This document shows positions 16,493-45,767 of a stretch of 64,000 bases of DNA, piece by piece. This DNA comes from a virus (Duplodnaviria; Heunggongvirae; Uroviricota; Caudoviricetes). Under the pieces are notes generated by a model. The model was given only the letters and a program-made list of their open reading frames with translations, was not told the DNA's origin and made no database searches. The stretch is from the IMG/VR virus record IMGVR_UViG_2576861193_000004, positions 42,259 through 106,258 of that record; one strand, written 5' to 3'. Numbering within the stretch: the first letter of the stretch is position 1; every line of letters starts with the position of its first letter. The translations under genes and the position numbers were made by a program.

Positions 16493-16508
16493 AAAACAAC
16501 TTGTTTAC
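16493..16508. promoter_or_regulatory. motif-1 palindrome (AAACAAnTTGTTT)
   Basis: aaaacaacttgtttac upstream of TerS-like gene. Confidence 0.45.
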
Positions 16509-16518
16509 TGCATCTGCT

Positions 16519-16534
16519 AACCAACTTGTTTTCT
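16519..16534. promoter_or_regulatory. motif-1 palindrome
   Basis: aaccaacttgttttct. Confidence 0.45.
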
Positions 16535-16649
16535 GGGGTGTTTAATTAGGTCTGGGCATGTCTTATTAAGCCTGCTTCCGTATATATTTAATAAGTTACT
16601 TATTATTTATATATACAGAAGCAGGTCTTTAAATAAGCTCCCAGACCGA

Positions 16650-16916
16650 TTACATCACCAGTAACTTCGCTTTGGCTCGACCTAAAGTGGTTAACCCAAG
16701 AGTTCGGCGGTGATAGCGATTGTCACTGCGTTGGCGCGTATGCCCTTTCTCCACCAGCCCCTTTTTTATCAGAGCGCGAATTGAGAACTGGATACTTTGC
16801 TTGGTTGTCTTGTACGGCAAAACTTCAAGCAATTCGTCCAGATCAAGTAAATGACCTCGCTCATAACCGAGATTGAGCGTTTTGATGATGTCCTTTTGTT
16901 TATCGGTTAACGTCAT
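16650..16916 (-). CDS. small winged-helix DNA-binding protein (putative regulator)
   Basis: 88 aa; helix-turn-helix-like segment TTKQSIQFSIRALIKKGLVEK; last gene of 5-gene operon. Confidence 0.35.
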   Translation of the reverse strand: MTLTDKQKDIIKTLNLGYERGHLLDLDELLEVLPYKTTKQSIQFSIRALIKKGLVEKGHTRQRSDNRYHRRTLGLTTLGRAKAKLLVM

Positions 16917-16925
16917 GGCAAATCC

Positions 16926-17816
16926 TTATGCCGGTAAAGCAATTTCTAACGGTTTATCCAAAGGTTGTTTGTCGAATGCCAGCAGTGGCAGCGTGTCAGG
17001 CAGTCGACGACCAAAGTCAGGGTTTCGGTACACACCATACAACGGAGACGTAAAGCTCAGGTTGTGAATGTCCTTGAGCAGCTTCACAATGCTGGCCTCG
17101 TCCACCAGACTGTCGGCAATGTCCTGAATCGTCGTGCCACGATTCCGCCCAGCTTTTGCCAGGGAACTGTTCTTGTGGTAGTCCGCCACCAGATCACGCA
17201 GTGCACGGCGACGACGAGACTCGCTCATTGCGAACAACTCTTTGACGATCGCCTCGTTATCACCAGGGTCGGAACGGAAATGGCGCTGGAATACACGCAG
17301 TGCACTTTCATAGCTCTTCGGTCGCTCAGGGCGGATGAACTTAAACCCTGCTTTCATGGCGAAGGGATTGTATTTGCTCATCGAGGACTGGATCTCAATG
17401 ATTGGCCGGTCATGCATCCTGCTAACCAGGTTAATCATTCGATAAGAGACGCCTACGCCACGATACTGAGTATCCACAACTGAGCGACTGATCACCGCAA
17501 AGTTGTTATTCACGTACCGACCCCAGTACTGGTTAGCCACGGTGGTATTAGTGGTTGGTTTCAACTTAGGAAACATGCGGTGGCGAGGTGCCAGCAGTAG
17601 TTTCGGGTAAGCCATAACCACGACGCCCACCAGACGGTCATCAAGTTCGCAGCGATAGTAAGTTGGCGCGAAAGGTTTGCCGTCTGTTTTGTAGTGAAGC
17701 GACTTAAGAGCGTGCCAGTCCTCTACAGTTCCCTTTGTGACAGTCATTCGCTCCAGAAAGTCCAGATGACGCGGAAACTCTTCAGGGCGGTAGCGTTTAA
17801 TGATGATGTCCGTCAT
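16926..17816 (-). CDS. GNAT-fold acetyltransferase-like protein with long C-terminal extension
   Basis: 296 aa; acetyl-CoA motif-A-like QYRGVGVS and motif-B-like NPFAMKAGFKF; 4-nt overlap with upstream ATPase gene. Confidence 0.45.
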   Translation of the reverse strand: MTDIIIKRYRPEEFPRHLDFLERMTVTKGTVEDWHALKSLHYKTDGKPFAPTYYRCELDDRLVGVVVMAYPKLLLAPRHRMFPKLKPTTNTTVANQYWGRYVNNNFAVISRSVVDTQYRGVGVSYRMINLVSRMHDRPIIEIQSSMSKYNPFAMKAGFKFIRPERPKSYESALRVFQRHFRSDPGDNEAIVKELFAMSESRRRRALRDLVADYHKNSSLAKAGRNRGTTIQDIADSLVDEASIVKLLKDIHNLSFTSPLYGVYRNPDFGRRLPDTLPLLAFDKQPLDKPLEIALPA

Positions 17817-18478
17817 AAATGAACCTCATCATGACTACCATTGTGATATTCCACCTTCACGCGTTCTTTGTAGTGCTTGGTGATCTGCATATCCGGGCGC
17901 AGCGCGTTCTTCAGGTCTTCGTGAGTCGTCGCCACCATTACCGTCGCACCAACCTTTCGAGCGGCACGCTGGAGGTTAGATGCCACAACCTGAGCGGTTA
18001 CACGGTCTAGAACAGCACCGAACTCGTCAGCAGCCCACACTTTAGCGCCTGACTCAATCAGTTTGGCAATCTTGAGACGATATTTCTGACCGTCTGACAT
18101 TTCAGAAGGCTTGCGAACAAACAGATATGCATCGTTCAGACCAGCCATAGATAACAACCCAAGCGCATCGCTGGTCGTTTTGCCCAACTGATCGATGACG
18201 TTAACCTCATTATCGAAGGTAAAATCATCGATGGAGGCTACAGACAGCCCTTCATCCTTCATCTGTCGTTGCAACTCGCGCAGCACAACGGATTTGCCGG
18301 AACCGGATTGGCCGGTGATGTACACCACATCGCCCTGCTTCACTTCCAGCTCCAGATTGTCGTAAAGCGTCCACTCTTTTTCGTCCAGGCCAAGCCCGAA
18401 CGACTCAGCGATTTCCAACGTGCGCGTGGTTTTATTTACGCGTGTCTGAAACGATACGTTGATGATGTATTTGCTCAT
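17813..18478 (-). CDS. stand-alone ABC-type ATPase
   Basis: 221 aa; Walker A GQSGSGKS, signature-like LSDGQKYR, Walker B VWAADEF, H-loop TTHE; no transmembrane domain. Confidence 0.7.
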   Translation of the reverse strand: MSKYIINVSFQTRVNKTTRTLEIAESFGLGLDEKEWTLYDNLELEVKQGDVVYITGQSGSGKSVVLRELQRQMKDEGLSVASIDDFTFDNEVNVIDQLGKTTSDALGLLSMAGLNDAYLFVRKPSEMSDGQKYRLKIAKLIESGAKVWAADEFGAVLDRVTAQVVASNLQRAARKVGATVMVATTHEDLKNALRPDMQITKHYKERVKVEYHNGSHDEVHL

Positions 18479-19143
18479 GCAGCCATCTCCCCGGAAGAGA
18501 TCTTCTCCGCATATGCCACAAATGCGTCTACACCGCTTTCTCCCGTCATTTCTTCCATATGGGCAAGCAAATCACCAACAACAATGGCAGAGCCAGCAGG
18601 GAGCGTTTTAAAGCCCAATACGTCGACAACACGTACTTCTTCCGCTGCAACTTCATGACTGATCTCGGTGTGTTCATCCTTCTGTCGTTTAGTTTCTTCG
18701 CCAAGATCGATAACTAGCGAGTCGGTGTCCATTTCTTCTGTCATGCTGCCAACGAGAACATTCAACTCACGCTCTTCAAAGCCGAAAACCTCGATATCGT
18801 CCAGAACAAGCGACTCAAGCTCTTTCTGTAGCTTAATTGCATCGTAATCAATGCTGGCAAGTCGGTTATCTTCAAGACGCTTCGCACGAACCTCGTCATC
18901 ACTGAGATCATCGCGAACAATAACCGGTACGCGCTCAAGTCCAGCAAAAATTGCAGCCTCACGGCGGCCGTGGCCAGTAATAATTACGTCGTTCTTATCG
19001 ACCGTAATTGGCTGGTCAAATCCGCGCTTTTTAATGGCTGCGGCCAGATCTCGGATCTGCTGTTCATCATGCTTTTTGGCATTCATCTCATAGGGAATAA
19101 GATCTGCCGGGTCGCGATATACGATTTCAAACTTTTTGGTCAT
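18475..19143 (-). CDS. ParB/Srx-fold (ParB-like nuclease domain) protein
   Basis: Start set at ATG 19141-19143 (TAATG overlap with upstream stop); ParB-box-like IITGHGRREAA. Confidence 0.6.
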   Translation of the reverse strand: MTKKFEIVYRDPADLIPYEMNAKKHDEQQIRDLAAAIKKRGFDQPITVDKNDVIITGHGRREAAIFAGLERVPVIVRDDLSDDEVRAKRLEDNRLASIDYDAIKLQKELESLVLDDIEVFGFEERELNVLVGSMTEEMDTDSLVIDLGEETKRQKDEHTEISHEVAAEEVRVVDVLGFKTLPAGSAIVVGDLLAHMEEMTGESGVDAFVAYAEKISSGEMAA

Positions 19144-19841: not shown

Positions 19842-19842
19842 T

Positions 19843-21467: not shown

Positions 21468-21746
21468 ATGAGCGAAAAGAAAACAACTTATTGCCAAGTG
21501 GCATTGTCTGATAAGGCCAATGAAAAACTTGGAAAATTTCAAATAAAACTCAAAGAGAAAAAAATCAAGATGTCTAAGGCTGAAGTTATCAATGCCATTC
21601 TGGAGACGATGACTATGGCTGAATTTGACAAAGTCACATCTGCCGTTGGGGTTTCCGCTAAGACGCGTGAGAAAATCATGCGCATCTATGAGAACTCCAA
21701 TATGACAAAAAAAGATCTAGAGGAAATACTGAGCAGGTTGCCGTAA
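21468..21746 (+). CDS. hypothetical small protein
   Basis: 92 aa ORF starting 3 nt after helicase stop. Confidence 0.3.
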   Translation: MSEKKTTYCQVALSDKANEKLGKFQIKLKEKKIKMSKAEVINAILETMTMAEFDKVTSAVGVSAKTREKIMRIYENSNMTKKDLEEILSRLP

Positions 21747-23012: not shown

Positions 23013-23627
23013 TTGGATTATCATGATATGAAAATGAAACTTTCGTTACTCCTTGCTTGTATATACCTCCCGGCGTTTCCCGCCAACGCATTATCAGATT
23101 TCGTCTCTGACATGCAAAAAACGTACAGCATGTTTACCTCCGAAGACGTAGTAGAATACAAATCACGAGGTCTGAATCAGCCAGTTTGGTTCAGATTCTC
23201 AGACAACGCAGAAGAAACAATACTTAATGGAGGAAAAGAAAGATTACGGTTGCAAATTAACGGGACCGCTGTACCAGAAAACGTTAATGTAAGCTCTGAC
23301 GAAGCCATGAAGCCATCTGGAATTGTTTTAGAAGTTCAAGACGGCACACTTTACTGTGATGAAATGGCTACAACAGGTTGCCAAGTAAACATTAGGGTTG
23401 GCAATGAAGAGCCTATCGTTACTTACGCCAAGGCTGAAGGGAATACAAGTGGAAAGGTATTGTTTATCGATGAAAATATCTCAAAACGTATCGTTCGTGA
23501 CATACAGAAAACAGCTAACTCTAAATCCGTCGATAAAAAAATCTATGTTGAGGTTCCCTTCTTTGTCGTTGGTAACAAAGAATTTAAATTTGGGTTGCTG
23601 AAAACACCTCTAAGAGTATCAGAATGA
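23013..23627 (+). CDS. hypothetical secreted protein (Sec signal peptide)
   Basis: N-terminus MKMKLSLLLACIYLPAFPANA with AxA cleavage-like site; start abuts previous stop. Confidence 0.35.
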   Translation: MDYHDMKMKLSLLLACIYLPAFPANALSDFVSDMQKTYSMFTSEDVVEYKSRGLNQPVWFRFSDNAEETILNGGKERLRLQINGTAVPENVNVSSDEAMKPSGIVLEVQDGTLYCDEMATTGCQVNIRVGNEEPIVTYAKAEGNTSGKVLFIDENISKRIVRDIQKTANSKSVDKKIYVEVPFFVVGNKEFKFGLLKTPLRVSE

Positions 23628-24148
23628 GAACATTGGACATCACCTACGGCATACCGGCTGAAGTCTGGCCGCGAGACTACGAACATGCTGAGAACATACT
23701 TATGTTCTGGCGGAAGAACAACATTCCTGTAAGAGTCACGCTTGAAGACGGTCAGGTGTTTTGCATGTACGTTCAGGGGACAATGCCTTCACGCAATAAG
23801 CTAGATTTATGCCCGATTCCATATGATAAAGAAAATCGTATAAGACTCCCACTTGAGCGCATTAGCACAATTGAATCAGGTGTAATCGATGGCATTGCTC
23901 GCGAGTTCAAAGGTAGGCTAACAATACATCCAGACTATGTTGACAATCAGCCATCACGCCGTGACTTTTTTGCGATATGTCGCAAGGCTTATCAAAACGA
24001 CCAATCTATAAGGGTCTACATGACAGACGGTCGTGAAATAGAAGGGGTGTCAAGAGGCGTTGATGCTTGCCAGGTCACTCTTAAGTTAGAAGACGGCAGA
24101 AAAATACTTGTTTTCTTCGATTGGGTTGAACGAATCCTTCCATTTTAA
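23624..24148 (+). CDS. hypothetical protein
   Basis: 174 aa; 4-nt overlap with upstream gene; followed by hairpin terminator. Confidence 0.3.
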   Translation: MRTLDITYGIPAEVWPRDYEHAENILMFWRKNNIPVRVTLEDGQVFCMYVQGTMPSRNKLDLCPIPYDKENRIRLPLERISTIESGVIDGIAREFKGRLTIHPDYVDNQPSRRDFFAICRKAYQNDQSIRVYMTDGREIEGVSRGVDACQVTLKLEDGRKILVFFDWVERILPF

Positions 24149-24160
24149 ATCTATAAGGGT

Positions 24161-25988: not shown

Positions 25989-26471
25989 TTACACGCCATC
26001 AAGGATGTGGATGCGGTTGCTTGCGTATACATTCAGCATAAAGTTAGCGCAAAACAGTTTCCATGTATCAACGCCAGCGGTATACGTAATGTTTTTGCAT
26101 TTAATTGCATTGTTGGCGATCCGCATCCCCTGCGATACTGCTTCATCGTCGGAAAATTTGAACGACGATTGAGTTTTAATCCAGACAGAAATCTGCGTAG
26201 CGAACTCAATCAGCTTGGACTGGCAGAATCGCCCGGAGCGCACCGGAAAGACGAACGTTCCGAATCCAGAATTTACCACATACGCTTTCTCAAATACCCG
26301 CGAGTAACGACGATTGCCAATGATGTCGCGTGCAATAATGCATTTTTCTTGTGCTGACAGTTCTACCGTCTCATTGTCGCGCCATGCACCAAGTACTCGT
26401 TTTTCAATGTCAGAGAACGTTACAGCGATATTGCCATGTGCGGGTGCGTTTACAGTAGCGATAAAATTCAT
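25989..26471 (-). CDS. hypothetical protein
   Basis: 160 aa; motif-1 palindrome 20 bp upstream of start. Confidence 0.3.
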   Translation of the reverse strand: MNFIATVNAPAHGNIAVTFSDIEKRVLGAWRDNETVELSAQEKCIIARDIIGNRRYSRVFEKAYVVNSGFGTFVFPVRSGRFCQSKLIEFATQISVWIKTQSSFKFSDDEAVSQGMRIANNAIKCKNITYTAGVDTWKLFCANFMLNVYASNRIHILDGV

Positions 26472-26490
26472 GATTAATTCCTTATCGTAA

Positions 26491-26508
26491 ATAACAAATT
26501 GTTTTCTT
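26491..26508. promoter_or_regulatory. motif-1 palindrome
   Basis: ataacaaattgttttctt, 20 bp upstream of start at 26471. Confidence 0.5.
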
Positions 26509-26821
26509 GTTGGTGTTAATTATCGTTGTACGAATAAGGCGTCAAAGTGGAAAGTTGCGGTAGCCGGACGGGAACAGGTGGGTTTGTCGGTTGCCTGGAG
26601 GTAAGAGGTTGGTGTTTTTAGCCTGCGGGAAACAGGATGGTCATTTAAGGCCACCAATGCTGATGGCCTTAATAATTATCGCCCTATTACGCTAAGGATC
26701 TTTTCCTCAACTGATTTGTTGTTGCGACTAAACTGCCTTGCGTATCTGATGACAGAAGAGGCGTTTTGCTTTCTGACCAATTCGACTCTTTCCTTCAGGG
26801 TTTTCTTGAAATCGCCCATAT

Positions 26822-27196
26822 TTACCACCAGGCGCAGAAGGTCAGTCTGTTATTGTGAAAGTCGTGGTTCCTGATCAGGTCTTCCACAAGTTTTTTCAGC
26901 TTATCCACGTCATGCCAGTAACCTTCGTCGTACTCCTGACTGCCGAAGAAAAAACCTTCCCGAGTAGGCAAGTACTCTTCGCAATTGCTTTCGTTTATGT
27001 GCATCAAATGAGCTTTCAGAAGACAAATGTCATTCATCGTTAATTCTAAAAGCTCACAATTTTCGACTTCACCTACGTTGCGCTCCATCCACCCAACGAG
27101 CGCATTGAACTTACGGAAGTAAGCAACCTGCTTTCTGGATGCCTCGTTATTCAGATCGTTTTTAGGCTGTGTCTCGATATAGATATCAAGTCCCAT
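26822..27196 (-). CDS. hypothetical acidic protein
   Basis: Start set at MGLDIYIE with RBS AAGGAAACC; motif-1 palindrome upstream; possible 46-aa coupled ORF downstream (about 26684-26821). Confidence 0.3.
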   Translation of the reverse strand: MGLDIYIETQPKNDLNNEASRKQVAYFRKFNALVGWMERNVGEVENCELLELTMNDICLLKAHLMHINESNCEEYLPTREGFFFGSQEYDEGYWHDVDKLKKLVEDLIRNHDFHNNRLTFCAWW

Positions 27197-27252
27197 GATG
27201 GTTTCCTTATTAAGTTGCTTCAGTGAAATCATTTTCACAAATCAGATAAGGC

Positions 27253-27268
27253 AGAAAACAAATTGTTA
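27253..27268. promoter_or_regulatory. motif-1 palindrome
   Basis: agaaaacaaattgtta. Confidence 0.5.
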
Positions 27269-27313
27269 TCGGGCATAATAAAATGGCGCGGTTTACGCGC
27301 CATTTAAAGAGGA

Positions 27314-27709
27314 TTAAGCGAATACGCTTTCAGGGATTAAGGTGTCGGCAGGAATGCCAGAGGTAATGCGCAGACCGTACTGGCCAATCCAGGTGGTGCT
27401 GGTGTTCAGGCTGGAGGCGAATACGGTGTTAACCATATTCATCATGGTTTCAAACACCTCTTCATCAACCTGGCGGAAGTAGTTCTCGATTTTCAGCAGC
27501 AGCGGGTCAGTTGCATCGAGAATGGACTGGTATTGAGTCGCGTACTCGCCGCCGGAGGCATCACCTTTACGCACGATCGTACTGGCCTGGACTTCGGCAC
27601 CAGTTTCGGTGTTGTACGTAACAACGGTAATTTTTGCCACATTCTTACCTTCGGCGGTTTCAGAGGCATAGTAAACATCAACTGTCAGTTTTTCGCGTTT
27701 AACGGTCAT
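27314..27709 (-). CDS. hypothetical protein
   Basis: Start set at MTVKREKL with RBS GGAGAG; motif-2 palindrome upstream. Confidence 0.3.
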   Translation of the reverse strand: MTVKREKLTVDVYYASETAEGKNVAKITVVTYNTETGAEVQASTIVRKGDASGGEYATQYQSILDATDPLLLKIENYFRQVDEEVFETMMNMVNTVFASSLNTSTTWIGQYGLRITSGIPADTLIPESVFA

Positions 27710-27775
27710 TTCACTCTCCGTAGTGTCTTGGTTATTTTTATATTCTATGATCGTAAGTATGTACTTACAATACAA

Positions 27776-27805
27776 AAAAGCCCCGTAAGGATGGCGGGGC
27801 TGTCG
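27776..27805 (-). terminator. rho-independent terminator
   Basis: Minus strand agccccgccatccttacggggct followed by tttttg. Confidence 0.5.
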
Positions 27806-27835
27806 TACGGTCGACTAATTACCACTTGCACATTA

Positions 27836-28147
27836 TCAGGCTATTGCCATCACTGATGCTCTCTGAATCTCTTGCTGGGCCACGCGGTTAACTTCCATCA
27901 AAGCCAGTTCGAGCTGATGTTCCGGCCACATTCTTTGAAATGCCACCCAGCCTTTTCCACGCTGGCGACGAACATTCATTACATAACGAGTAAAGGTGTT
28001 TTTATCGAAAGACACCGCTGTTTCACGGAACAGACGAATAGAGGTTCCATTGGCAACGATGTCCAGCAAAGTTAATTGAGCAACCAGCGCAGGCTTCTCT
28101 TTTCTCTTCTGGTCTTTGTCCAGACCAAGAACCAATGATTTTTTCAT
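27836..28147 (-). CDS. hypothetical basic protein
   Basis: Start set at MKKSLVLGL; motif-1 palindrome immediately upstream. Confidence 0.3.
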   Translation of the reverse strand: MKKSLVLGLDKDQKRKEKPALVAQLTLLDIVANGTSIRLFRETAVSFDKNTFTRYVMNVRRQRGKGWVAFQRMWPEHQLELALMEVNRVAQQEIQRASVMAIA

Positions 28148-28157
28148 CACAACTCCG

Positions 28158-28174
28158 TAAACAACTTGTTTTCT
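28158..28174. promoter_or_regulatory. motif-1 palindrome
   Basis: taaacaacttgttttct preceded by caactccg. Confidence 0.5.
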
Positions 28175-28300
28175 CAATGGCGTAAATAATACCAGTAAGA
28201 AAACGGCTACAAAGCATATTGATCAGGTGCATGAGCGATATGCAGGTTCTTCCCTGCGGCTATAGAGAAATTAAGCCAGCAATGCTGGCTTTGGTTGGGG

Positions 28301-28630
28301 TTACTCGAATACTTCAAGAAACTCCTGAACGTCCCAATGCTGGACGAGGTGAAGATAGACCTTAGAAATCACGTCATTTTCGCTATCGCATGTGAAGTAG
28401 TACTTCTGGCTGCGGTTGTATGTGTCCACACAAAATTCGCTCATATCCATAAAGTCAGCATCTTCACCCATGTCGCAAATCATCAAAGCAGGTGCGTCAT
28501 CACGAGTCATCAGCTCCAGCACCCATCTTGAATTAATCAGAGTGGAAGACCAACCTTCCAGCTCATAGAACTGGTCAAACTCTTTTTGAGTCAATTTCTT
28601 GATTTGGTTGATGTCGATATTTGCAAACAT
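28301..28630 (-). CDS. hypothetical small acidic protein
   Basis: Start set at MFANIDINQ with RBS AAGGA; Asp/Glu-rich; motif-1 palindrome in 5' UTR. Confidence 0.3.
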   Translation of the reverse strand: MFANIDINQIKKLTQKEFDQFYELEGWSSTLINSRWVLELMTRDDAPALMICDMGEDADFMDMSEFCVDTYNRSQKYYFTCDSENDVISKVYLHLVQHWDVQEFLEVFE

Positions 28631-28642
28631 AAAGCAATCCTT

Positions 28643-28658
28643 AAACAACATGTTTTCT
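28643..28658. promoter_or_regulatory. motif-1 palindrome
   Basis: aaacaacatgttttct in 5' UTR of 28301-28630. Confidence 0.5.
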
Positions 28659-28991
28659 TGATGGTGTTATTATCGCAATAACGCACAGGCGAAAAAGGAT
28701 TTTATTCCGGTGAATGTGGTTTTGGCAGTGAGTTTTCAGGTTCAGTACCGAGTACACTTTTTACATTATTCTGATTTAGTGGCCGAAGGTGGCTGGTGGG
28801 CAGAATAATCATCTCCCCGAAAACCTACTGAAATCGATTGTGACCCGCTGACTGTCTGGCACAATTACGCTGTAGTTGGGCATTCAGAGGGAATCCAGCG
28901 GTAAGTAAGTTCGCCTGCACGTGAGCGCCTCTCTTCTTCCCGCACATTACAGGTGGGTAGCCGCAACTCTCCCTATCGCTATACCGGTACG

Positions 28992-29129
28992 CCGCCGTTC
29001 CTGAACCGGCATCGAGCCTTTTCCCGAAATCCACACAGGCAACTCGACCGTTTCCCTGAAAACCTCCAGCCGTTCCCCGAAGGCAACCCAGCCGTTTCTG
29101 TAGCGGGATGCAGCCTTTTCCCTGTATGG
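28992..29129 (+). repeat. iteron-like direct repeat array (6 copies, GCC(G/T)TT(T)CC core)
   Basis: cgccgttcctgaa / gagccttttcccgaaat / cgaccgtttccctgaaaac / cagccgttccccgaagg / cagccgtttctgtagc / cagccttttccctgtat at about 22 bp spacing; same family as array at 25861-25981. Confidence 0.5.
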
Positions 29130-29229
29130 ACCTAAGGCTGACCGTAGGGGTGTTACGGGGGATAAAATCAGGAGTTGATTAAATACGAAAAAGGAGGCGA
29201 CACCCCTCCTTCCCTCCCCACTTATACAT

Positions 29230-29995
29230 ACCTGTCTTGTTCGCTATACATGTTGTGTTTTCTTCGTGTTTTATCTGTCTCAACCTCTCTATAGGCGTTA
29301 ATGCTCACTCCTTCCAGAATGTTCTATACGGCGACTATTTCTGTTGGTGAATTGGGTGTGTTGTTTTCTCTGTCGGTGTATGTGGTTTCGTTCGTTTTGC
29401 GGTGGTTCTTCTATGGGGTGTTCTCGTCGTTTTGGTGATTGTTCTTCTCCGTGTATGGAGTAATGGCAGGTGGGCGATTCCTTTCGTTATTGTGTTTGAG
29501 TTGTTTGTCTGGAGTGTGAAAGGCTTTTGTAGTTATTCGTGTATTGGGTAATGGCGTTTCCCGTGATTGTTATGTTTCGTGTCTTTTGGGATTGAGAGAA
29601 ACCTTGCGGTTACAGGCTTCGTTGGGGTTTCAGTGATTCTGGTGTTTCTTCGCTGTTTGGGTAATGGCGTGTCGTGGGTATCGCGCGTATGAATGTTTTC
29701 GGATTGCCTGTGAAAGTTAGGTTGGTTGTCCGGTAGCCTGGGGAGAAGAGGTGGGTCTTTTCGGTAGCCTGCCATAAAGAGGTTGGTTGTTTTGGGGAAT
29801 GGCATGTGTGTTATTTAGTTGTTTTGTTATGCCTGAAAATAAGTTGTTTATATGGTTGTGTAACGCAACGGGAACGATTTTGAGCGTGTGTTTTTGTTGG
29901 TGGTGTGTTGGGTCGTCTGTGGTGAAAATTGGACGCTGTGGCGCTGTCTGCTGCGTAGAATTACGGGTATAAGAAGTGATGTGTGAATACGTCAA
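29230..29995 (+). other. ORF-free tract with extreme G+T strand bias (C+A-rich on minus strand)
   Basis: Plus strand almost devoid of A and C over about 0.75 kb; only low-complexity ORFs on minus strand; contains CGGTAGCCTG..AGAGGTKGGT motif also present at 26555-26620. Confidence 0.5.
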
Positions 29996-30192
29996 TTTTT
30001 TAGACCAAATCGGGTGAAAGCGTTGACGTTTCGTTGATCTGTTATTCAGTTGTTTTCTTATTGGTATAAACAACGTTAACCTATTGATATTTAAAGGTGT
30101 GATTGCAGGTATGGAAGGAGAGTAGTGGCGATCAACAGATTCTTATAGAAAAGAATCAAATTGTGACCGCCATTATCAATAAGTTGCAACCG

Positions 30193-30762
30193 TTAGTTGT
30201 TCAGATAAACATTTGGAACACGGACGTAGAAGTTCCTGTCGCCGGTAAGTTCCAGAGTAATGTTAATGTCATTACCATTGTCTAGTGTAGCCGTTGCTCT
30301 ATAGAACTTATCCGTCACCTTGTCCTCTATTGTCACCTTCATACATTTTGGTGCAGTCGAACCGTTATTCTCTTTCAGAATAGTTGTCACGAGAGGGCAG
30401 GCTGCTTCTTCAAGAGCAACCTCGTCCTTGTGTGGGATGCCGATGAAGATAATCCAAGCCAGCGACGCAACGATTATGATAAATGGCACTCTGCTGCCTT
30501 TTGTAATAGTCGCGCGCTTCCAGAGATAGACAGGCAGGAGGAATACCCCCCATAGAATTGAAGGTGGTTCACAGCCAGACTCCGATAGAGCCATTCTGTC
30601 AGCTACTAACAAACCGATGGTAGTTACACCCCCAATTATAATAGCGTAATTGGTATACTCTTCCGGCGATACTCCAAAGAAGAAAGGCATGAACGCTAGA
30701 ATCCACGCATAAATGTTATTCAGAGGTTTTGTTTGTTGGTTCTGGGTTTCCATCACATCCAT
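30193..30762 (-). CDS. hypothetical membrane protein (N-terminal TM helices + C-terminal soluble domain)
   Basis: Hydrophobic segments IYAWILAFMPFFFGV, AIIIGGVTTIGLLVA, ILWGVFLLPVYLW, FIIIVASLAWIIFIGI. Confidence 0.35.
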   Translation of the reverse strand: MDVMETQNQQTKPLNNIYAWILAFMPFFFGVSPEEYTNYAIIIGGVTTIGLLVADRMALSESGCEPPSILWGVFLLPVYLWKRATITKGSRVPFIIIVASLAWIIFIGIPHKDEVALEEAACPLVTTILKENNGSTAPKCMKVTIEDKVTDKFYRATATLDNGNDINITLELTGDRNFYVRVPNVYLNN

Positions 30763-30914
30763 TCCATCACATAAAAATCGCGTTTATATATTATCAATTT
30801 TCTCACTTGTATAACCTAAATACGCATCCGTTTATCAATCCACCTTCCACAAACATCAGCTTTAGCTATGAAAAATAACAATCTCAAAGTGAAAACCATT
30901 ATCATAGGAAACGA

Positions 30915-31100
30915 TTAGATGAGATGGTCTAATTCATCATCTATCATTGCTTTAACACTTGAGTCATTAACCCCGTATTGATTTATGAGCCGTTTCAGCT
31001 CCGGTGAAAACTGAAGGTAGATATCGTGAGCGTTTTTCACTGTAGGTTCAACGCCACGCATTTCAAGCGCCTTTAGTAGATATGAGTCTTCTTTAAGCAT
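30915..31100 (-). CDS. hypothetical small protein
   Basis: 61 aa ORF downstream of 31137-31436. Confidence 0.25.
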   Translation of the reverse strand: MLKEDSYLLKALEMRGVEPTVKNAHDIYLQFSPELKRLINQYGVNDSSVKAMIDDELDHLI

Positions 31101-31136
31101 AAATTCTCCGTTATCTAGTATGAAGCGATTGCCGGA

Positions 31137-31436
31137 TTACCATTGCCAGCACTCTAGCCCTTCAACGACCGGTGCACCACAATCAAAATGTACAGAGTCA
31201 AAGCCTACATCAAGTACTTTCTGAATGTTAGCAATCGCGCCTTCGGATATACCATATCGACGCAAGTCATCTTTCCAGACATCATCCTGTAACCCGGCGT
31301 GGACAATACAACCGCCATCAATTTGTGAAACCCAATCCAGCTCATTGCTTGCGATCATGAATCGGCGAGCATCTTCCTCTGATGTATGAGATGAACTGAT
31401 CAATGCCACCTGGTAGGCTTGGGTAATGTTCAACAT
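31137..31436 (-). CDS. hypothetical protein
   Basis: 99 aa; two motif-1 palindromes upstream (31448-31465, 31497-31514). Confidence 0.3.
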   Translation of the reverse strand: MLNITQAYQVALISSSHTSEEDARRFMIASNELDWVSQIDGGCIVHAGLQDDVWKDDLRRYGISEGAIANIQKVLDVGFDSVHFDCGAPVVEGLECWQW

Positions 31437-31447
31437 TTCAACAACTC

Positions 31448-31465
31448 CGAAACAATTTGTTTTCT
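31448..31465. promoter_or_regulatory. motif-1 palindrome
   Basis: gaaacaatttgttttctt preceded by caactccg. Confidence 0.5.
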
Positions 31466-31496
31466 TATGTGGCTTATTATCTCAATCAACAAAAGG

Positions 31497-31514
31497 TAGA
31501 AAACAAATTGTTTT
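31497..31514. promoter_or_regulatory. motif-1 palindrome
   Basis: agaaaacaaattgtttta; last phage-type signal before metG terminator. Confidence 0.5.
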
Positions 31515-31549
31515 AGGGTTTGTTAAAGTCAGAAGGGGTTGTGTCTATA

Positions 31550-31580
31550 TGAAAATGCCCAGCGTGTTGCCGGGCATTGC
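31550..31580 (-). terminator. putative terminator downstream of metG
   Basis: aatgccc-N11-gggcatt 7-bp stem just after metG stop, followed on minus strand by ttcatat. Confidence 0.35.
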
Positions 31581-31597
31581 GAACAGAGGTTGTTTAA

Positions 31598-33631
31598 TTA
31601 CTTAACCTGGTGGCCTGGTTTAGCACCAGCATCCGGGCTTAACAGGAAGATATCTTTCCCGCCGGGGCCAGCAGCCATCACCATGCCTTCGGAGATACCG
31701 AAGCGCATTTTACGCGGAGCCAGGTTAGCCACCATAATGGTGTGACGACCAATCAGTGCCTGTGGGTCTGGATAAGCAGAACGGATGCCTGAGAAGACAT
31801 TACGCTTTTCACCACCGAGATCCAGTGTCAGACGCAGCAGTTTGTCAGAACCTTCGACAAACTCCGCGTTTTCAATCAGCGCCACACGCAGGTCAACTTT
31901 GGCGAAGTCGTCAAAGGTGATGGTTTCCTGAATCGGGTCGTCAGCCAGTGGGCCAGTTACCGGTGCAGCTGTGGCTTTCACTTCTTCTTTGGATGCTTCC
32001 ACCAGTGCTTCCACCTGTTTCATATCGATACGGTTATACAGTGCCTTGAACGGATTCACTTTATGGCCCAGCAGCGGTTGCTGGATACCATCCCAGGTCA
32101 GTTCTGTATTCAGGAATGCTTCTGCACGTTCAGTCAGTTTCGGCAGTACCGGTTTCAGGTACGTCATCAGCACGCGGAACAGGTTAATGCCCATAGAGCA
32201 AATCGCCTGCAGGTCGGCATCGCGGCCTTCCTGCTTCGCCACCACCCACGGAGCCTGTTCATCAACATAGCGGTTAGCCAGGTCAGCCAGTGACATGATT
32301 TCACGGATAGCTTTGCCAAATTCGCGGCTTTCCCACGCTTCACCAATCACTTCAGCGGCATCAGTGAAGGTTTTGTACAGTTGCGGGTCAGCCAGTTCGC
32401 TTGCCAGCACGCCGTCAAAACGTTTGTTGATAAAACCTGCATTACGGGAGGCCAGGTTAACCACTTTGTTCACGATATCGGCATTCACGCGCTGAACAAA
32501 ATCTTCCAGGTTGAGATCGATATCATCAATGCGCGAAGAGAGTTTCGCAGTGTAGTAGTAACGCAGGCTGTCGGCGTCAAAATGATTCAGCCAGGTGCTG
32601 GCTTTAATAAAGGTGCCGCGAGACTTGGACATCTTCGCGCCGTTCACCGTCACATAGCCGTGAACAAACAGGTTGGTCGGCTTGCGGAAGTTGCTGCCTT
32701 CCAGCATGGCAGGCCAGAACAGGCTGTGGAAGTAAACGATATCTTTACCGATGAAGTGGTACAGCTCGGCGGTGGAGTCTTTCTTCCAGTATTCGTCGAA
32801 GCTGGTAGTGTCGCCGCGTTTGTCGCACAGATTCTTGAAGGAACCCATGTAGCCAATCGGCGCGTCCAGCCAGACGTAGAAATATTTGCCCGGTGCGTTC
32901 GGAATTTCAAAACCGAAGTACGGCGCATCGCGGGAGATATCCCACTGTTGCAGGCCAGATTCAAACCACTCCTGCATTTTGTTTGCCACCTGCTCCTGCA
33001 ACGCACCGCTGCGGGTCCATGCCTGCAACATTTCGCTGAAAGAGGGCAGATCAAAGAAGAAGTGTTCAGAATCACGCATTACCGGCGTAGCGCCAGAAAC
33101 CACCGATTTCGGCTCGATCAATTCAGTCGGGCTATATGTTGCGCCGCAGACTTCACAGTTATCGCCGTATTGATCTGGCGCTTTACATTTAGGACAGGTG
33201 CCTTTTACAAAACGGTCCGGCAGGAACATGCCTTTTTCCGGGTCGTACAACTGAGAGATAGTGCGGTTTTTAATAAAACCGTTCTCTTTCAGGCGAGTAT
33301 AGATAAGCTCAGACAACTGACGGTTCTCTTCGCTGTGCGTCGAGTGATAGTTGTCATAGCTGATGTTAAAGCCTGCGAAATCAGTCTGGTGTTCCTGACT
33401 CATTTCGCCAATCATCTGCTCCGGTGTGATACCAAGCTGCTGTGCTTTCAGCATGATCGGCGTACCGTGGGCATCGTCGGCACAGATGAAATTAACCTCG
33501 TGGCCGCGCATTCGCTGGTAACGAACCCAGACATCAGCCTGGATGTGCTCCAGCATATGGCCGAGGTGGATTGAGCCGTTAGCGTACGGCAGCGCGCACG
33601 TCACCAGAATTTTCTTCGCGACTTGGGTCAT
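31598..33631 (-). CDS. metG: methionine--tRNA ligase
   Basis: Translation from [26 protein letters not shown] (HIGH motif) through KMSKS to C-terminal tRNA-binding domain ending [10 protein letters not shown]; 677 aa from ATG 33631; ORF track N-terminal extension rejected. Confidence 0.95.
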
Positions 33632-39720: not shown

Positions 39721-42700
39721 ATGACTCATCAAACACACACCATTGCTGAATCCAATAACTTTATCGTCCTTGATAAGTACATCAAAGCTGAGCAAACAAG
39801 CGACAGCTACCAGAGCGAATCGGACCTGGAACGTGAACTGATTCAGGACCTGCGGAATCAGGGTTATGAATTTATTTCCGTAAAATCACAGTCGGCAATG
39901 CTGTCCAATGTTCGGGAACAGCTTCAGAGCCTCAATGGTGTGATGTTTAATGACAGCGAGTGGCGGCGCTTCACGGAGCAGTATCTGGACAATCCCAGCG
40001 ATGGTATTCTGGATAAGACCCGTAAAATCCATATCGACTATATCTGCGACTTTATTTTTGACGACGGGCGTCTTGAGAACATCTATCTGATCGATAAAAA
40101 GAATCTCATGCGCAACAAAGTGCAGATTATCCAGCAGTTTGAACAGGCAGGTTCTCATGCTAACCGTTATGACGTCACGATCCTGGTTAATGGCTTGCCT
40201 CTGGTGCAAATCGAACTGAAAAAGCGCGGCGTGGCGATTCGTGAGGCTTTCAACCAGATACATCGTTACAGCAAAGAGAGTTTTAACAGCGAAAATTCCC
40301 TGTTTAAGTATCTGCAACTGTTTGTCATTTCTAACGGCACCGATACCCGTTATTTTGCCAACACCACAAAGCGCGATAAAAACAGTTTTGACTTCACCAT
40401 GAACTGGGCGAAATCAGACAACACGCTGATTAAAGACCTCAAAGACTTTACCGCTACCTTTTTCCAGAAACATACCCTGCTTAATGTTCTGGTGAACTAC
40501 AGCGTGTTTGACAGTAGTCAGACGCTACTGGTGATGCGACCGTACCAGATTGCAGCTACCGAACGGATCTTATGGAAAATCAACAGCTCCTATAAAGCGA
40601 AAAACTGGTCTAACCCCGAAAGCGGTGGCTTTATCTGGCACACCACTGGTTCCGGTAAAACACTGACCAGCTTTAAAGCCGCGCGTCTGGCAACTGAACT
40701 GGACTTTATTGATAAAGTCTTCTTCGTGGTCGACAGGAAAGACCTCGATTACCAGACCATGAAGGAATATCAGCGTTTTTCGCCAGACAGCGTCAACGGC
40801 TCGGAAAATACCGCAGGTCTTAAACGAAATCTGGATAAGGACGATAACAAAATTATCGTCACCACTATTCAGAAACTTAATAACCTGATGAAAGCAGAAA
40901 GCGACCTGCCTGTATACAATCAGCAAGTGGTGTTTATATTTGATGAATGCCACCGCAGCCAGTTTGGAGAAGCGCAGAAAAACCTGAAGAAGAAATTCAA
41001 ACGCTATTATCAGTTTGGTTTTACCGGCACCCCTATTTTCCCGGAAAATGCCTTAGGCTCAGAAACGACCGCCAGCGTATTTGGTCGTGAATTGCATTCG
41101 TATGTAATTACCGATGCGATTCGTGACGAAAAAGTGCTCAAATTCAAGGTGGACTACAACGATGTGCGGCCACAGTTTAAGTCTTTAGAGACAGAAACTG
41201 ACGAGAAAAAACTGAGTGCGGCTGAAAATCAGCAGGCGTTTCTTCATCCCATGCGTATTCAGGAAATCACGCAATATATCCTGAACAACTTCCGCCAGAA
41301 GACTCACCGTACTTACCCCGGCTCCAAAGGTTTTAATGCCATGCTGGCAGTAAGCAGCGTGGATGCCGCGAAAGCCTATTACGCGACGTTTAAACGGTTA
41401 CAAGAGGAAGCCGCTAATAAATCTGCTACCTATAAACCACTGCGTGTTGCGACAATCTTCTCCTTTGCCGCCAATGAAGAACAAAATGCCATTGGTGAAA
41501 TTTCCGATGAAACTTTTGATACCAGCGCAATGGACAGCAGTGCTAAAGAGTTTCTTGACGCTGCAATTCGTGAGTATAACAGCTATTTTAAAACTAACTT
41601 CAGCACCGACAGTAACGGTTTTCAGAACTACTATCGTGATTTAGCCCAACGGGTTAAAAATCAGGATATCGATCTGTTAATTGTCGTTGGGATGTTTTTA
41701 ACCGGCTTCGACGCTCCAACATTGAACACGCTATTCGTCGATAAAAACTTGCGTTTTCACGGCCTGATGCAGGCATTCTCCCGTACCAACCGCATTTATG
41801 ACGCTACTAAAACCTTCGGTAACATCGTCACTTTTCGGGATCTGGAACGCTCAACCATTGATGCCATAACGCTGTTTGGTGATAAAAATACTAAAAATGT
41901 GGTGTTAGAAAAGAGTTATGCAGAGTATATGGAAGGCTTTACTGATGCTGCTACAGGTGAAGCTAAACGCGGCTTTATGGCAGTAGTTTCAGAACTGGAA
42001 CAACGGTTCCCTGACCCTGCCAGTATTGAAAGTGAAAAAGAGAAGAAAGACTTCGTTAAACTGTTTGGCGAATACCTGCGTGCCGAGAACATCCTGCAAA
42101 ACTATGATGAATTTGCCACGCTGAAAGCCCTGCAACAAATCGATCTTAGCGATCCTGTTGCGGTAGAAAAATTCAAAGAAGAACATTATGTGGATGATGA
42201 AAAGTTCGCTGAATTGCAAACGATTCGTCTCCCTGCTGAACGCAAGATTCAGGATTATCGTTCTGCCTATAACGATATTCGTGACTGGCAGCGCCGCGAG
42301 AAAGAAGCTGATAAAAAAGAAAAATCAACCACTGACTGGGATGACGTGGTTTTTGAGGTCGATTTGCTGAAGTCTCAGGAAATAAACCTGGATTATATCC
42401 TTGGACTGATTTTCGAACACAACAGACAAAATAAAGGCAAGGGCGAAATGATCGAAGAGGTCAAACGCTTAATTCGTTCAAGCCTGGGGAACCGGGCGAA
42501 AGAGGGCCTGGTGGTCGATTTTATTCAGCAAACGAACCTGGATGATTTACCAGACAAAGCCAGCATCATTGACGCGTTCTTTACCTTTGCTCAACACGAA
42601 CAGCTACGTGAAGCAGAAGCGTTGATTAAAGAAGAAAATCTCAATGAAGAGGCGGCGAAACGCTATATTCGCACGTCTTTAAAACGCGAATACGCCACCG

Positions 42701-43378: not shown

Positions 43379-43420
43379 TAATAGCACCATTAAGAAGTGA
43401 TTTGTTTAATGGTGCTATTA
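43379..43420. other. perfect 15-bp inverted repeat with 12-nt loop
   Basis: taatagcaccattaa-gaagtgatttgt-ttaatggtgctatta; also a 3x gatagtc direct repeat at about 43312-43335. Confidence 0.6.
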
Positions 43421-43482
43421 TTTCAAAAATGAAAAGGTACTAAATAGAAATAAACCGGCAATCCTTCAAATAAAGGCATTGT

Positions 43483-44097
43483 CTAATCATACTTGGAGGT
43501 ATTTATCACCAGAATTTTGTTTGTATAAATCTTCTTAATATCCCATGTGACATTACCGGAATACCATTGGCCGTTATACACTTGGTTTCCAGTTGCACCT
43601 GTCATAGTTACATAGACAGGTCTGTCGTAATCGGTTCGTCTATAGTTATATACCCCAACCATAGCAGGCATTACTGCGCACGGATACCCCATATCTATTG
43701 TAAATTGTGGGTCAGAAATAGTGATAAGTTTCGCATCAAGGGGCATCATCTCACCGTGATACACCATTGCGCCTGCGCTGTTATACATGGCAATGCCATA
43801 GCCAGAATGTGGTAACACCATATCAGAAAAAGCATAAACTGTTATTGTTCCGGGGCTACCATTTACCTGATGCAATCTGAGAGCATTGTATCCGTTACTA
43901 TTTTCATGAATAAACATCATGTTCGCCTTATTACTGCTTTTTATGAAGAAAAAGCATGATTTGTTTGATGGGATTGATGTTTTAAAAACAGAACCTTTAG
44001 ATGCAGACATTGTCCCTTTATTAATCAGATTTTGCGGAGTAAATTCTGGACTCATCCACAAACCTCCATCTGATTGAGTAATTGACATCCCGAACAT
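43483..44097 (-). CDS. hypothetical protein (Gly/Ser/Thr/Asn/Tyr-rich, beta-rich)
   Basis: Start set at MFGMSITQSDGG (ATG 44095-44097) right after stop of upstream gene; low-GC region. Confidence 0.3.
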   Translation of the reverse strand: MFGMSITQSDGGLWMSPEFTPQNLINKGTMSASKGSVFKTSIPSNKSCFFFIKSSNKANMMFIHENSNGYNALRLHQVNGSPGTITVYAFSDMVLPHSGYGIAMYNSAGAMVYHGEMMPLDAKLITISDPQFTIDMGYPCAVMPAMVGVYNYRRTDYDRPVYVTMTGATGNQVYNGQWYSGNVTWDIKKIYTNKILVINTSKYD

Positions 44098-44099
44098 AA

Positions 44100-44381
44100 T
44101 TATCCCCAGTATGTGTATATGTAAGAACCAAGCCCCGTATATAAATTTGACCAACTAACCGTATTTCCATTAATAGTAACTTTCGGAACAGGTAAATTGA
44201 TGTAGTTGTCGTTGTTAAGAGGCATCAATGACCACACGGCATGAAGTGATTTACCCGGTGGCGGATTAGAGTACGTCTTAGAGCCTGATGACGCCGTAAA
44301 TCGATCAAGAAAAAAAATAGGTGTAAGGAAGCCAGTAACGTTAATTCCTTTATTGTTGTAAATCCCTGTACCGTATGCCAT
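44100..44381 (-). CDS. hypothetical protein
   Basis: 93 aa; coupled to downstream gene; low-GC. Confidence 0.3.
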   Translation of the reverse strand: MAYGTGIYNNKGINVTGFLTPIFFLDRFTASSGSKTYSNPPPGKSLHAVWSLMPLNNDNYINLPVPKVTINGNTVSWSNLYTGLGSYIYTYWG

Positions 44382-44435
44382 TTTTCACCCTTGTTTTTAT
44401 CAACACAATATGGCCGATCATGCGGCCATATCAGA

Positions 44436-45005
44436 TCAATTAGAGCTTTGAAAGACTTTGTGTGGTTGTGTTGCGAGGTTATGTCGATGGCTTAACTCAC
44501 GCATCATGTCTTCAAGGCGACTCTTTGTGTCGTCGAGTTGGTCGGCCATTGCTCCCAAAAGCTGACGAACGGCCATCGGATCATCGCTGTTTAGTGATGG
44601 CATTTTATAACCCGCCTGAGAAGACATAAGATTGAACGCAGACATCAACATCGTTAGAGAGGATTTAAGCCCAGCAATTTCACGATCTTTGCTGGCAATA
44701 ATCGCCTCACTCTTGTTAGTGTCATCAGTACGTTGAGTCTCGCTCACCATATCCAAAGTCGCCTGCAACTTATCAGCGAGCTCTTTTTCAGCAAGATAAT
44801 GAACGCCGAAATGATGTGCTAAAGCTACAACCTGAGTTGGTTCTTCAAAGGTGGAATTAAAATTAAGTACTGTAAACAGTCTCTCAAATATGGAAACGTC
44901 TTCTGTTCCCCGAACAATACCTAACATTTTGACAAGTTCATTAGCATCCATTTCTTCGAATAGGGCGTTTTGTTCATCAGCTATTGCTTTGCATTTCTCG
45001 CACAT
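44436..45005 (-). CDS. hypothetical protein
   Basis: 189 aa; 5' UTR AAGGAAAACAC-ATG with motif-1 palindrome upstream, same architecture as the TerB-like gene. Confidence 0.3.
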   Translation of the reverse strand: MCEKCKAIADEQNALFEEMDANELVKMLGIVRGTEDVSIFERLFTVLNFNSTFEEPTQVVALAHHFGVHYLAEKELADKLQATLDMVSETQRTDDTNKSEAIIASKDREIAGLKSSLTMLMSAFNLMSSQAGYKMPSLNSDDPMAVRQLLGAMADQLDDTKSRLEDMMRELSHRHNLATQPHKVFQSSN

Positions 45006-45022
45006 GTGTTTTCCTTAATTCT

Positions 45023-45040
45023 TAAACAAGTTGTTTTCTT
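45023..45040. promoter_or_regulatory. motif-1 palindrome
   Basis: taaacaagttgttttctt upstream of 44436-45005. Confidence 0.5.
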
Positions 45041-45302
45041 ATTGGGTTTATTGTGATGTGGCATATAAGGGGAGCAAGCTAAACGTAAAGGTGCAAACTC
45101 TCTATTTTGGTCAACGAAACACAAGGGCCATTTGGCCCTTGCCATTAACACGTTGCTTTACGGACTAGCGGATAGGCGAAGTAGATCGCCAAACCAATGA
45201 GGACGCCATCAGAAATGACAGACATCATCTTTCCCGTAAAATCCACCAACACCGCCATCACCAGAAGAGCAATGACGGTCACAAGCCGGAATCTCTCAAG
45301 CA

Positions 45303-45728
45303 TTAGAGATAAGCATCCAGTGACAACTGAAGCGCCTGGGCGATCTTTTTCAGTGCCTGCTCTTCTTGTTCACCAATGCCGTCCTGGTCGGCAATATCAA
45401 GGCACAGACACAGAACATCGACCGCCTCTGGAGTGCCCGCAATATCAGCCAGCTCACGCATAGCCTGCGCATTCGCAGAACGAGGGGACGCTTCGTAACG
45501 AGCACGGATATTGGCGCTCATTTGGGCAATTTCACCAGCAAACGGAGAAAACGCAGGCAGAGCTGCAATTGTCTTCTCAAGAATGGCAATTTCTTTTGCG
45601 TCACATGTGCCGTCGGCATAGGAGATCATGTACGCGCCCCACACGGTGGCCTCAACCGCATCACGGTTCTCCATTTTTTTGACTTCGATAACAGCTTTAC
45701 GAGTTTTCTTTTTGAAGAAACCTAACAT
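45303..45728 (-). CDS. TerB-domain protein
   Basis: 141 aa; two TerB-like acidic helical repeats (ISYADGTCDAKEIAILEKTIAAL and LCLCLDIADQDGIGEQEEQALKKIAQAL). Confidence 0.45.
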   Translation of the reverse strand: MLGFFKKKTRKAVIEVKKMENRDAVEATVWGAYMISYADGTCDAKEIAILEKTIAALPAFSPFAGEIAQMSANIRARYEASPRSANAQAMRELADIAGTPEAVDVLCLCLDIADQDGIGEQEEQALKKIAQALQLSLDAYL

Positions 45729-45750
45729 GTGTTTTCCTTTTGTTATTTGT

Positions 45751-45767
45751 CAAAACAAGTTGTTTTA
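45751..45767. promoter_or_regulatory. motif-1 palindrome
   Basis: caaaacaagttgtttta upstream of TerB-like gene. Confidence 0.5.

Follow-up and report, generated by a model that had tools for sequence, protein, structure and literature searches.

What does a short palindrome do when it recurs, copy after copy, in front of the genes of a virus that is kept as a plasmid, and what reads it? The question is raised by a 64,000-nucleotide stretch of viral DNA (positions 42,259 to 106,258 of IMG/VR record IMGVR_UViG_2576861193_000004; hereafter the window), which is part of one ~110-kb SSU5-like phage-plasmid of Escherichia coli. In this element the 13-base palindrome AAACAAnTTGTTT, here termed Motif-1, repeats far above chance; it keeps a regular geometry relative to the genes that it precedes, is conserved across three diverged plasmid groups, and stands before genes that are silent in a lysogen. 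We give an even chance to the reading that Motif-1 is a duplex-DNA operator, single or paired, embedded in homologous promoter cassettes and silencing a regulon that spans the phage-plasmid.

Frequency and conservation of Motif-1

With up to two mismatches allowed, the pattern AAACAANTTGTTTTCT has 20 strand matches in the window; the expectation, taken from 100 dinucleotide-preserving shuffles, is 0.32 (largest shuffle value, 3). The original prediction, made from the letters of the window, had read ten copies and named a weight-matrix scan as the way to compare them with background; a symmetric matrix built from the window sites finds 11 sites of at least 15 bits where 0.07 are expected. All ten copies are present, 0-2 nt from where they had been placed: 16493 (found at 16494), 16519 (16519), 26491 (26492), 27253 (27253/27256), 28158 (28159), 28643 (28643), 31448 (31450), 31497 (31498/31501), 45023 (45024) and 45751 (45750/45753). 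Their position before minus-strand genes holds for 10/10 sites, and the proposed distance of at most about 60 bp to the gene start was nearly right, the span from motif centre to ATG being 18-72 nt. By contrast, the supposed extension of the motif, CAACTCCG, lies outside the palindrome: it is complementary to CGGAGTTG, with which the minus-strand gene downstream binds the ribosome.

Region 26000-32000 of the window matches 730 plasmids (from Escherichia, Klebsiella, Enterobacter, Yersinia and Salmonella), nearly all of them non-mobilizable, the closest being E. coli p15ODDR (112.8 kb, IncFIB, 98% identity), as well as the SSU5-like phages Cyrano, CMS-2020a and PhiR41_1. In the annotation of p15ODDR, genes for capsid, portal, terminase and replication flank the metG-apbC-humD-hsdMSR segment on both sides; the window thus belongs in its entirety to one SSU5-like phage-plasmid, which carries the metG-hsd block as cargo. 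Cyrano has different genes at the position of this block. Motif-1 occurs on both sides of the cargo for this reason, and the idea that it ties the two arms into one element proved correct.

The motif is not limited to positions 16493-45767 of the window, the range originally given for it. Further copies lie outside, among them four more strong sites in the 49 kb of p15ODDR beyond the window, 23-42 nt before the ATG of genes for a parA-like ATPase, a dnaB-like helicase, a cobT-like protein and a small protein. Nor does it serve small genes only, as had been thought, since it also precedes the terS/structural operon in the window, and parA, the dnaB-like helicase gene and the cobT-like gene in the rest of the plasmid. 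Phage SSU5 carries 20 copies at no more than one mismatch, against 0.36 expected (27 at 15 bits or more), and keeps a tandem pair before terS plus sites before parA, dnaB and cobT. In two Klebsiella plasmids of the pCAV group, 13 sites were found in 40 kb with the same sequence, despite proteins only about 25-90% identical to those of the window. When IMG/VR was scanned for AGAAAACAANTTGTTT, the multi-site contigs were all SSU5-like, and the remainder were single chance matches. Finally, a 96-bp cassette with two copies of the motif (window 31430-31525) was found at 354 places in 295 of 5,426 complete E. coli genomes, all on plasmids and never on the chromosome. None of four Motif-1 13-mers was found in the searchable literature.

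Putative promoter cassettes and expression in the lysogen

Oriented by their downstream gene, 42 sites fall into two classes, from which 20 class A and 12 class B sites were taken for a spacing scan. Class A sites lie 18-35 nt from the ATG, read AGAAAACAAnTTGTTTA(A/C)GG (as RNA, the leader reads AGAAAACAAnUUGUUUAAGG) and are usually adjoined by the ribosome-binding site; class B sites lie 60-76 nt from the ATG and read CCTTAAACAAnTTGTTTTCT. The best -10-like hexamer begins 25-26 nt upstream of the centre in 14 of the 20 class A sites, nine of these with a TG extension, and exactly 26 nt downstream of the centre in 10 of the 12 class B sites, all ten with TG. If the hexamer is taken as -12 to -7, the centres would fall near +13 in class A and near -38 in class B. 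The two classes are combined at four promoters, always 51 bp apart (window 31507/31456; SSU5 88325/88376 and 93668/93719; pCAV 30560/30509). In both, the longer and better-conserved arm faces the core promoter (AGAAAACAA and TTGTTTTCT, respectively), and seven of the 12 class B sites retain the outer flank AAGG/CCTT, for which no role in ribosome binding is possible there. A terminator hairpin stands immediately before several cassettes. The fixed distance of TGnGATAAT from the site centre would be compatible with sites that overlap separate promoters.

Motif-1 would be the common operator of homologous cassettes with sigma-70 promoters of the extended -10 kind, TGnGATAAT; their full order would be an optional terminator, operator B at about -38, the extended -10, operator A at about +13, the ribosome-binding site and the ATG. 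Each promoter would have A, B or both, and the members of a pair, 51 bp or about five helical turns apart, would mirror each other on either side of the core promoter. The element would make a factor that recognises the sequence, occupies the sites as duplex DNA and, once bound, blocks both binding and escape of RNA polymerase. About 15 transcription units could be kept quiet in this way in the plasmid state, including many small stand-alone genes, the terS late operon, the dnaB-like helicase gene and the cobT-like gene.

The sites in the window, with two of the genes concerned, are as follows.

16491-16509, minus: motif copy AGTAAACAAGTTGTTTTAG, promoter-distal member of a tandem pair, 47 nt to the ATG of the terS-like gene 15821-16453
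16516-16534, minus: motif copy AGAAAACAAGTTGGTTAGC, 25 bp upstream of the 16491 copy and just downstream of an A/T-rich -10-like TAATTA
26489-26507, minus: class A copy AGAAAACAATTTGTTATTT, -10-like GATAAT at 26519-26524, 27 nt to the ATG of gene 25989-26471
27253-27271, minus: class B copy CGATAACAATTTGTTTTCT, terminator hairpin before it and extended -10 TGTGAAAAT after it, at 27231-27236
28156-28174, minus: class A copy AGAAAACAAGTTGTTTACG, extended -10 TGGTATTAT at 28186-28191, adjoining GGAG ribosome-binding site, gene 27836-28147
28640-28658, minus: class A copy AGAAAACATGTTGTTTAAG, extended -10 TGCGATAAT at 28669-28674, gene 28301-28630
31447-31465, minus: class A copy AGAAAACAAATTGTTTCGG of a two-operator promoter, gene 31137-31436 (DUF5983)
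31498-31516, minus: class B copy CTAAAACAATTTGTTTTCT, the upstream partner of the 31447 copy in that promoter at a distance of 51 bp, common extended -10 TGAGATAAT at 31476-31481
45021-45039, minus: class A copy AGAAAACAACTTGTTTAAG, gene 44436-45005 (189 aa, phrog_5508, function unknown)
45750-45768, minus: class A copy ATAAAACAACTTGTTTTGA, gene 45303-45728 (TerB/TciA-like)
24098-24116, no strand assigned: degenerate copy AGAAAAATACTTGTTTTCT within the FljA-family gene, in its 3' end, the eleventh site of at least 15 bits
29834-29852, minus: weak copy TATAAACAACTTATTTTCA, about 13-15 bits, functioning uncertain
21481 and 27121: other weaker copies
15821-16453, minus: terS-like gene that follows the tandem sites and opens the packaging/structural operon, with a stable hairpin in its leader
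23624-24148, plus: gene for an FljA-family protein (Pfam Flag1_repress) of 174 aa, candidate trans-acting factor

The tandem pair at 16491/16516 has an orthologue in SSU5 (L004:56 and 81), and pCAV has one copy. The degenerate copy at 24098-24116 has no counterpart at the same place in SSU5 or pCAV and is probably incidental to the coding sequence (GRKILVFF). The gene downstream of the 27253 copy is likely to start at 27196 rather than at the annotated 27232. In reference records, annotated starts overlap the putative promoter or the motif at 27196-27232 and at Cyrano 95805 and 97903; for such genes, the start is more likely to be an ATG farther downstream that has a good ribosome-binding site.

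Three further observations concern the surroundings of the motif. In the terS leader (~16455-16492, minus strand), a stable hairpin (z -3.35, -17.9 kcal/mol) comes right after the two motif copies, with a U-rich run behind it; SSU5 and pCAV have a hairpin at the same place with different stem sequences, and it may be an attenuator of the late operon. In a pCAV plasmid (L018:24626-24700 and 24097-24160), two or three extra direct repeats of the half-site AGAAAACAA stand at 17-22 nt intervals beside some class B sites, on the strand opposite the gene. P1-like plasmids of E. coli hold one isolated class-B-like cassette, CTTAAACAATTTGTTTTCT followed by TGAGAAAAT (NZ_CP077449.1, L141:2990-3050), which suggests cassette exchange between phage-plasmid families.

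Literature searches for operators or transcriptomes of SSU5-like elements gave nothing beyond the LF82 study, whose S1 table holds RNA-seq data for the related phage-plasmid Cyrano in lysogens (PMC9928086); Cyrano is induced by ciprofloxacin. We mapped the Motif-1 sites onto the genes of Cyrano and read their expression from that table (log2 values).

CYRAN_1, 32, 47, 70, 85, 87, 93, 101, 106, 108 and 110 (behind the motif): about 2.3-6
CYRAN_105 and CYRAN_111 (behind the motif): up to 7.7-7.8 in some conditions
parA (CYRAN_28): 5-10
cI-like XRE repressor (CYRAN_45): 6.4-10.3
FljA-like gene (CYRAN_114): 4.2-8.1
ribbon-helix-helix-like 92-aa gene (CYRAN_117): 6.3-9.9
ParB-like genes (CYRAN_119 and 120): background to low, 2.3-5.2
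88-aa winged-helix-like gene (CYRAN_123): 2.9-6.6

Genes behind the motif are silent or low in the Cyrano lysogen, which favours repression in the plasmid state. Lysogenic conversion, one of the two functions first proposed for these genes, is therefore unlikely, while the other, anti-defence, is possible, as are early lytic roles. Downstream of the promoter with two operators, 30915-31100 encodes a 61-aa protein that matches the RecBCD inhibitor Gp5.9 of T7 at E 0.005, short of the Pfam cut-off, which is a weak hint at an anti-defence role for genes of the regulon. The top lysogen transcript of the element (log2 11.5-15) comes from the CYRAN_43 homologue (L002:26225-26779, outside the window), which encodes a 184-aa protein of unknown function beside the integrase and is absent from SSU5.

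Candidate readers of the motif

The leading candidate for the cognate factor is the FljA-family protein encoded at 23624-24148, because it is the only conserved lysogen-expressed regulator to which no site is assigned. It matches Flag1_repress (PF03614) with E 9.1e-81 and 270 bits (cut-off 24), residues 5-171 covering profile positions 1-170, and aligns end to end with the FljA encoded beside a flagellin gene in NZ_CP038605.1 (36% identity, 17 shared invariant columns); no flagellin or invertase gene lies near 23624-24148. The gene is core to every SSU5-like record, with near-full-length matches in 835 plasmids and 12 phage records. A profile search of the family recovered only two clades, phage-plasmid and flagellar, and the majority of the members found are encoded by SSU5-like phage-plasmids, not by flagellar loci. 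One hit labelled chromosomal (P0074) belongs to a fragmented assembly of 21 short called genes with no Pfam match besides the query. The repressor gene, which the original prediction thought might lie beyond the window, thus need not do so, as this candidate is inside it.

The predicted model of the protein consists of two tandem Hfq-like Sm domains, with the N-terminal helix and five bent β-strands of the Hfq/Sm fold, and shows no helix-turn-helix; the FljA family is usually annotated as transcriptional regulators. The model suggests that the protein binds RNA rather than duplex DNA. The Hfq/WYL-like fold makes duplex binding by this protein doubtful, and for that reason a DNA-binding protein that has escaped recognition is about equally likely to be the binder. 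When action on DNA and on RNA are counted together, the FljA-family protein falls just short of an even chance of being the cognate factor. Of the original proposal of an operator for a dimeric repressor or activator, then, the regulon is real and the overlap with promoters and leaders fits the operator of a repressor, whereas the predicted fold of the candidate fits RNA binding better. A test of covariation between protein and motif gave neither support nor refutation, the XRE repressor and a second palindrome (see below) behaving alike.

Other proteins fared less well as binders. The two ParB-like proteins, considered by analogy with KorB, were rejected because their genes are at background or low in the lysogen and they show only the N-terminal ParB domain, with no helix-turn-helix detected; the 88-aa winged-helix-like protein was set aside as not expressed in the lysogen. 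The 92-aa protein encoded at 21468-21746 has an N-terminus resembling a ribbon-helix-helix DNA binder (YCQVALSDKANEKL...SKAEVINAILE) and matches no Pfam family; in Cyrano, its homologue ranks with the most highly expressed genes of the lysogen. It was discarded because the strand residues predicted to face the DNA vary between plasmid groups while the motif is invariant. An autoregulated regulator among the controlled genes was also considered and dropped, since no DNA-binding domain was found in any of them. Among the other small lysogen-expressed proteins we found neither a DNA-binding domain nor a family assignment.

Competing explanations, known systems and significance

Whether the palindrome is recognised in DNA or in RNA is the main point of contention. 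As RNA, Motif-1 forms a hairpin of at best -0.7 kcal/mol, which is unused in 5/6 leaders and has z-scores near 0; variant sites show single, uncompensated changes, and both arms are conserved as sequence. A translational operator in the form of an RNA hairpin was rejected on the lack of a stable hairpin and of compensatory changes in the arms. Class B sites come after terminators and upstream of the -10, and should therefore be absent from the mRNA. These features, together with a spacing that is rigid to the -10 yet loose to the ATG, argue for recognition of duplex DNA, whereas the strict sense orientation beside the ribosome-binding site and the lone A-rich half-sites argue for a role at the RNA level. 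Such a role could be played by the FljA-family protein if it read the motif in the mRNA 5' leader by the ribosome-binding site, blocked translation and triggered mRNA decay, as reported for FljA on fliC, whose mRNA is said to be undetectable when FljA is present (reportedly Yamamoto & Kutsukake 2006); class B sites would then be relics or would act on read-through or antisense RNA. The full-length Flag1_repress match and end-to-end alignment with a bona fide FljA speak for this account, as do the lysogen expression of the gene and its presence in every SSU5-like element, the position of class A sites, always in sense and directly 5' of the ribosome-binding site, and the half-site AGAAAACAA found at the putative transcript start even in B-only promoters. 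Moreover, the fliC leader of Salmonella and Citrobacter has CAAGTTGT 24 nt before the ATG, with an equal core at an equal distance. However, this similarity is weak (3.4 bits on the core matrix, rank 5th-12th in 8-kb loci), so that we discarded it as proof of a link to FljA and kept it as a weak hint; a perfect palindrome would be pointless in single-stranded RNA; about one third of the sites (class B) lie upstream of the putative start and are conserved as well as class A; and protein and motif do not covary. On balance, we regard leader recognition by this protein as rather unlikely.

Still less probable, in our judgement, is a passive mobile promoter cassette, spread by duplication and recombination between small genes and served by no dedicated binding protein. 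The homology does extend beyond the motif (spacer CCTT.T, TGnGATAAT and a CCAaca stretch), the genes that the cassettes flank are small, of unknown function and located where the element is AT-rich and varies most, a terminator immediately precedes some cassettes, and an isolated copy is found in P1-like plasmids; yet in strongly diverged genomes no part of the cassette is as well conserved as the palindrome, its two positions 51 bp apart have no rationale intrinsic to a promoter (to act as a -35, the right arm would have to lie 2 bp closer to the -10), and seemingly good extended -10 promoters are silent in the lysogen. We give very little credence to an operator of the cI-like XRE master repressor (the CYRAN_45 homologue, outside the window) comparable to the dispersed operators of P1 C1. 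This repressor is lysogen-expressed and present in all plasmid-state relatives, and its absence from the phage isolate SSU5 would suit the notion that SSU5 is a virulent deletion derivative. Its own control region (outside the window), however, was found to hold no Motif-1 but a different, perfect palindrome, GGTAAGTGCTTACC, plus half-sites, and it was rejected as a Motif-1 binder for this reason. The second palindrome belongs to a family, (G/A)(G/A)TAAGTA..TACTTA(C/T)(C/T), that is itself dispersed at other promoters, in the window (7550, 27752, 46648, 47844, 48898, 53742, 53896 and 55021), in the rest of the plasmid (L002:28563 and others) and, conserved, in pCAV. This second regulon, separate from that of Motif-1, most likely belongs to the XRE repressor, and the second palindrome is probably the operator of that repressor. 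A host transcription factor common to Enterobacterales, highly improbable likewise, would account for a motif that stays invariant across Escherichia, Salmonella and Klebsiella elements while their proteins diverge, but not for a cassette that is confined to plasmids in the complete E. coli genomes. We know of no E. coli factor with a Motif-1 site; the closest known site is the KdgR box, whose half-sites are 2 bp closer together.

The duplex-DNA operator itself has to face several observations that weigh against it. The gene parA has Motif-1 yet is moderately expressed in the lysogen. B-only promoters retain a lone half-site AGAAAACAA at the putative transcript start, which a dimeric DNA binder does not explain. 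The FljA-like protein, the domains of which are modelled as a single-strand-binding kind, falls to 36-42% identity in pCAV while the motif is unchanged, and no duplex-DNA-binding protein could be assigned: the genes for the ParB-like and winged-helix-like proteins are silent and the DNA-facing residues of the ribbon-helix-helix-like protein vary. The promoters are putative, having been assigned by eye and by hexamer scan, and a simple -35/-10 consensus scanner called none of them, because it demands a -35. Lastly, the cassettes could owe their rigid spacing to a common origin, with no functional reason behind it.

Several known systems resemble the one described here in part. In P1, operators of C1 stand at many distinct promoters, one of which serves a DnaB-type helicase. 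Both elements are plasmid prophages that are mostly silent in the plasmid state and have one short sequence scattered over the genome, here at putative promoters, among them that of the dnaB-like helicase gene; however, the P1 operator is an asymmetric 17-mer, whereas the 13 bp of Motif-1 form a perfect palindrome, which takes one of two set places relative to the promoter. Moreover, the cI-like repressor here apparently has a palindrome family of its own, and there would therefore be two regulons. The system of KorB, a ParB-family protein, and KorA in the IncP plasmid RK2 exerts element-wide repression through a 13-bp palindrome with a free central base, one class of which lies just upstream of the -35 (at about -39/-40). 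Size, copy number (a dozen or more) and the class centred just upstream of the -35 are matched here, but the site sequence is unrelated, and the two ParB-like genes of this element are lysogen-silent and lack a detected helix-turn-helix.

Salmonella FljA shares with the present case clear family membership and presumed sites directly upstream of the ribosome-binding site, similar to the fliC-leader dyad with its core CAAGTTGT. Unlike FljA, which has one target, the phage-plasmid has 15-27 sites, one third of them outside the putative mRNA; the gene is unlinked to flagellin or invertase genes, and the sequence similarity to fliC is weak. The promoter-early stem-loop (PeSL) cassettes of T4-type phages are reportedly promoter-plus-terminator modules flanking small unknown genes (Arbiol et al. 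2010). These also are repeated modules in a plastic part of the genome, but the conserved palindrome at fixed positions suggests a trans-acting factor here, and core operons (terS, parA, dnaB-like) are served too. While dispersed operators (P1) and global regulons (RK2) are known, Motif-1, its two-position geometry and the apparent two-regulon logic are not described in the literature that could be searched.

SSU5-like phage-plasmids are common, the cassette alone being found in 295/5,426 complete E. coli genomes, and have relatives in Klebsiella, Salmonella Typhi (pHCM2) and Yersinia pestis (pMT1), yet their gene regulation is essentially unstudied. Motif-1 maps one co-regulated set of genes and their promoters, and the second palindrome points to a control logic of two regulons; together they make the quiescence of a plasmid prophage, and the first genes fired on induction, directly testable. 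The small genes under control are good places to seek early anti-defence or host-takeover functions. It is also conceivable, though the balance is against it, that the FljA family consists primarily of phage-plasmid regulators with two Hfq-like domains that read AGAAAACAAnTTGTTT(AAGG) at 15-27 sites in SSU5-like elements and silence the whole regulon, Salmonella FljA being a domesticated member that keeps the CAAnTTGT core for the fliC leader. If the FljA-family protein is indeed the reader, this would explain the origin and the fold of the repressor of flagellar phase variation.

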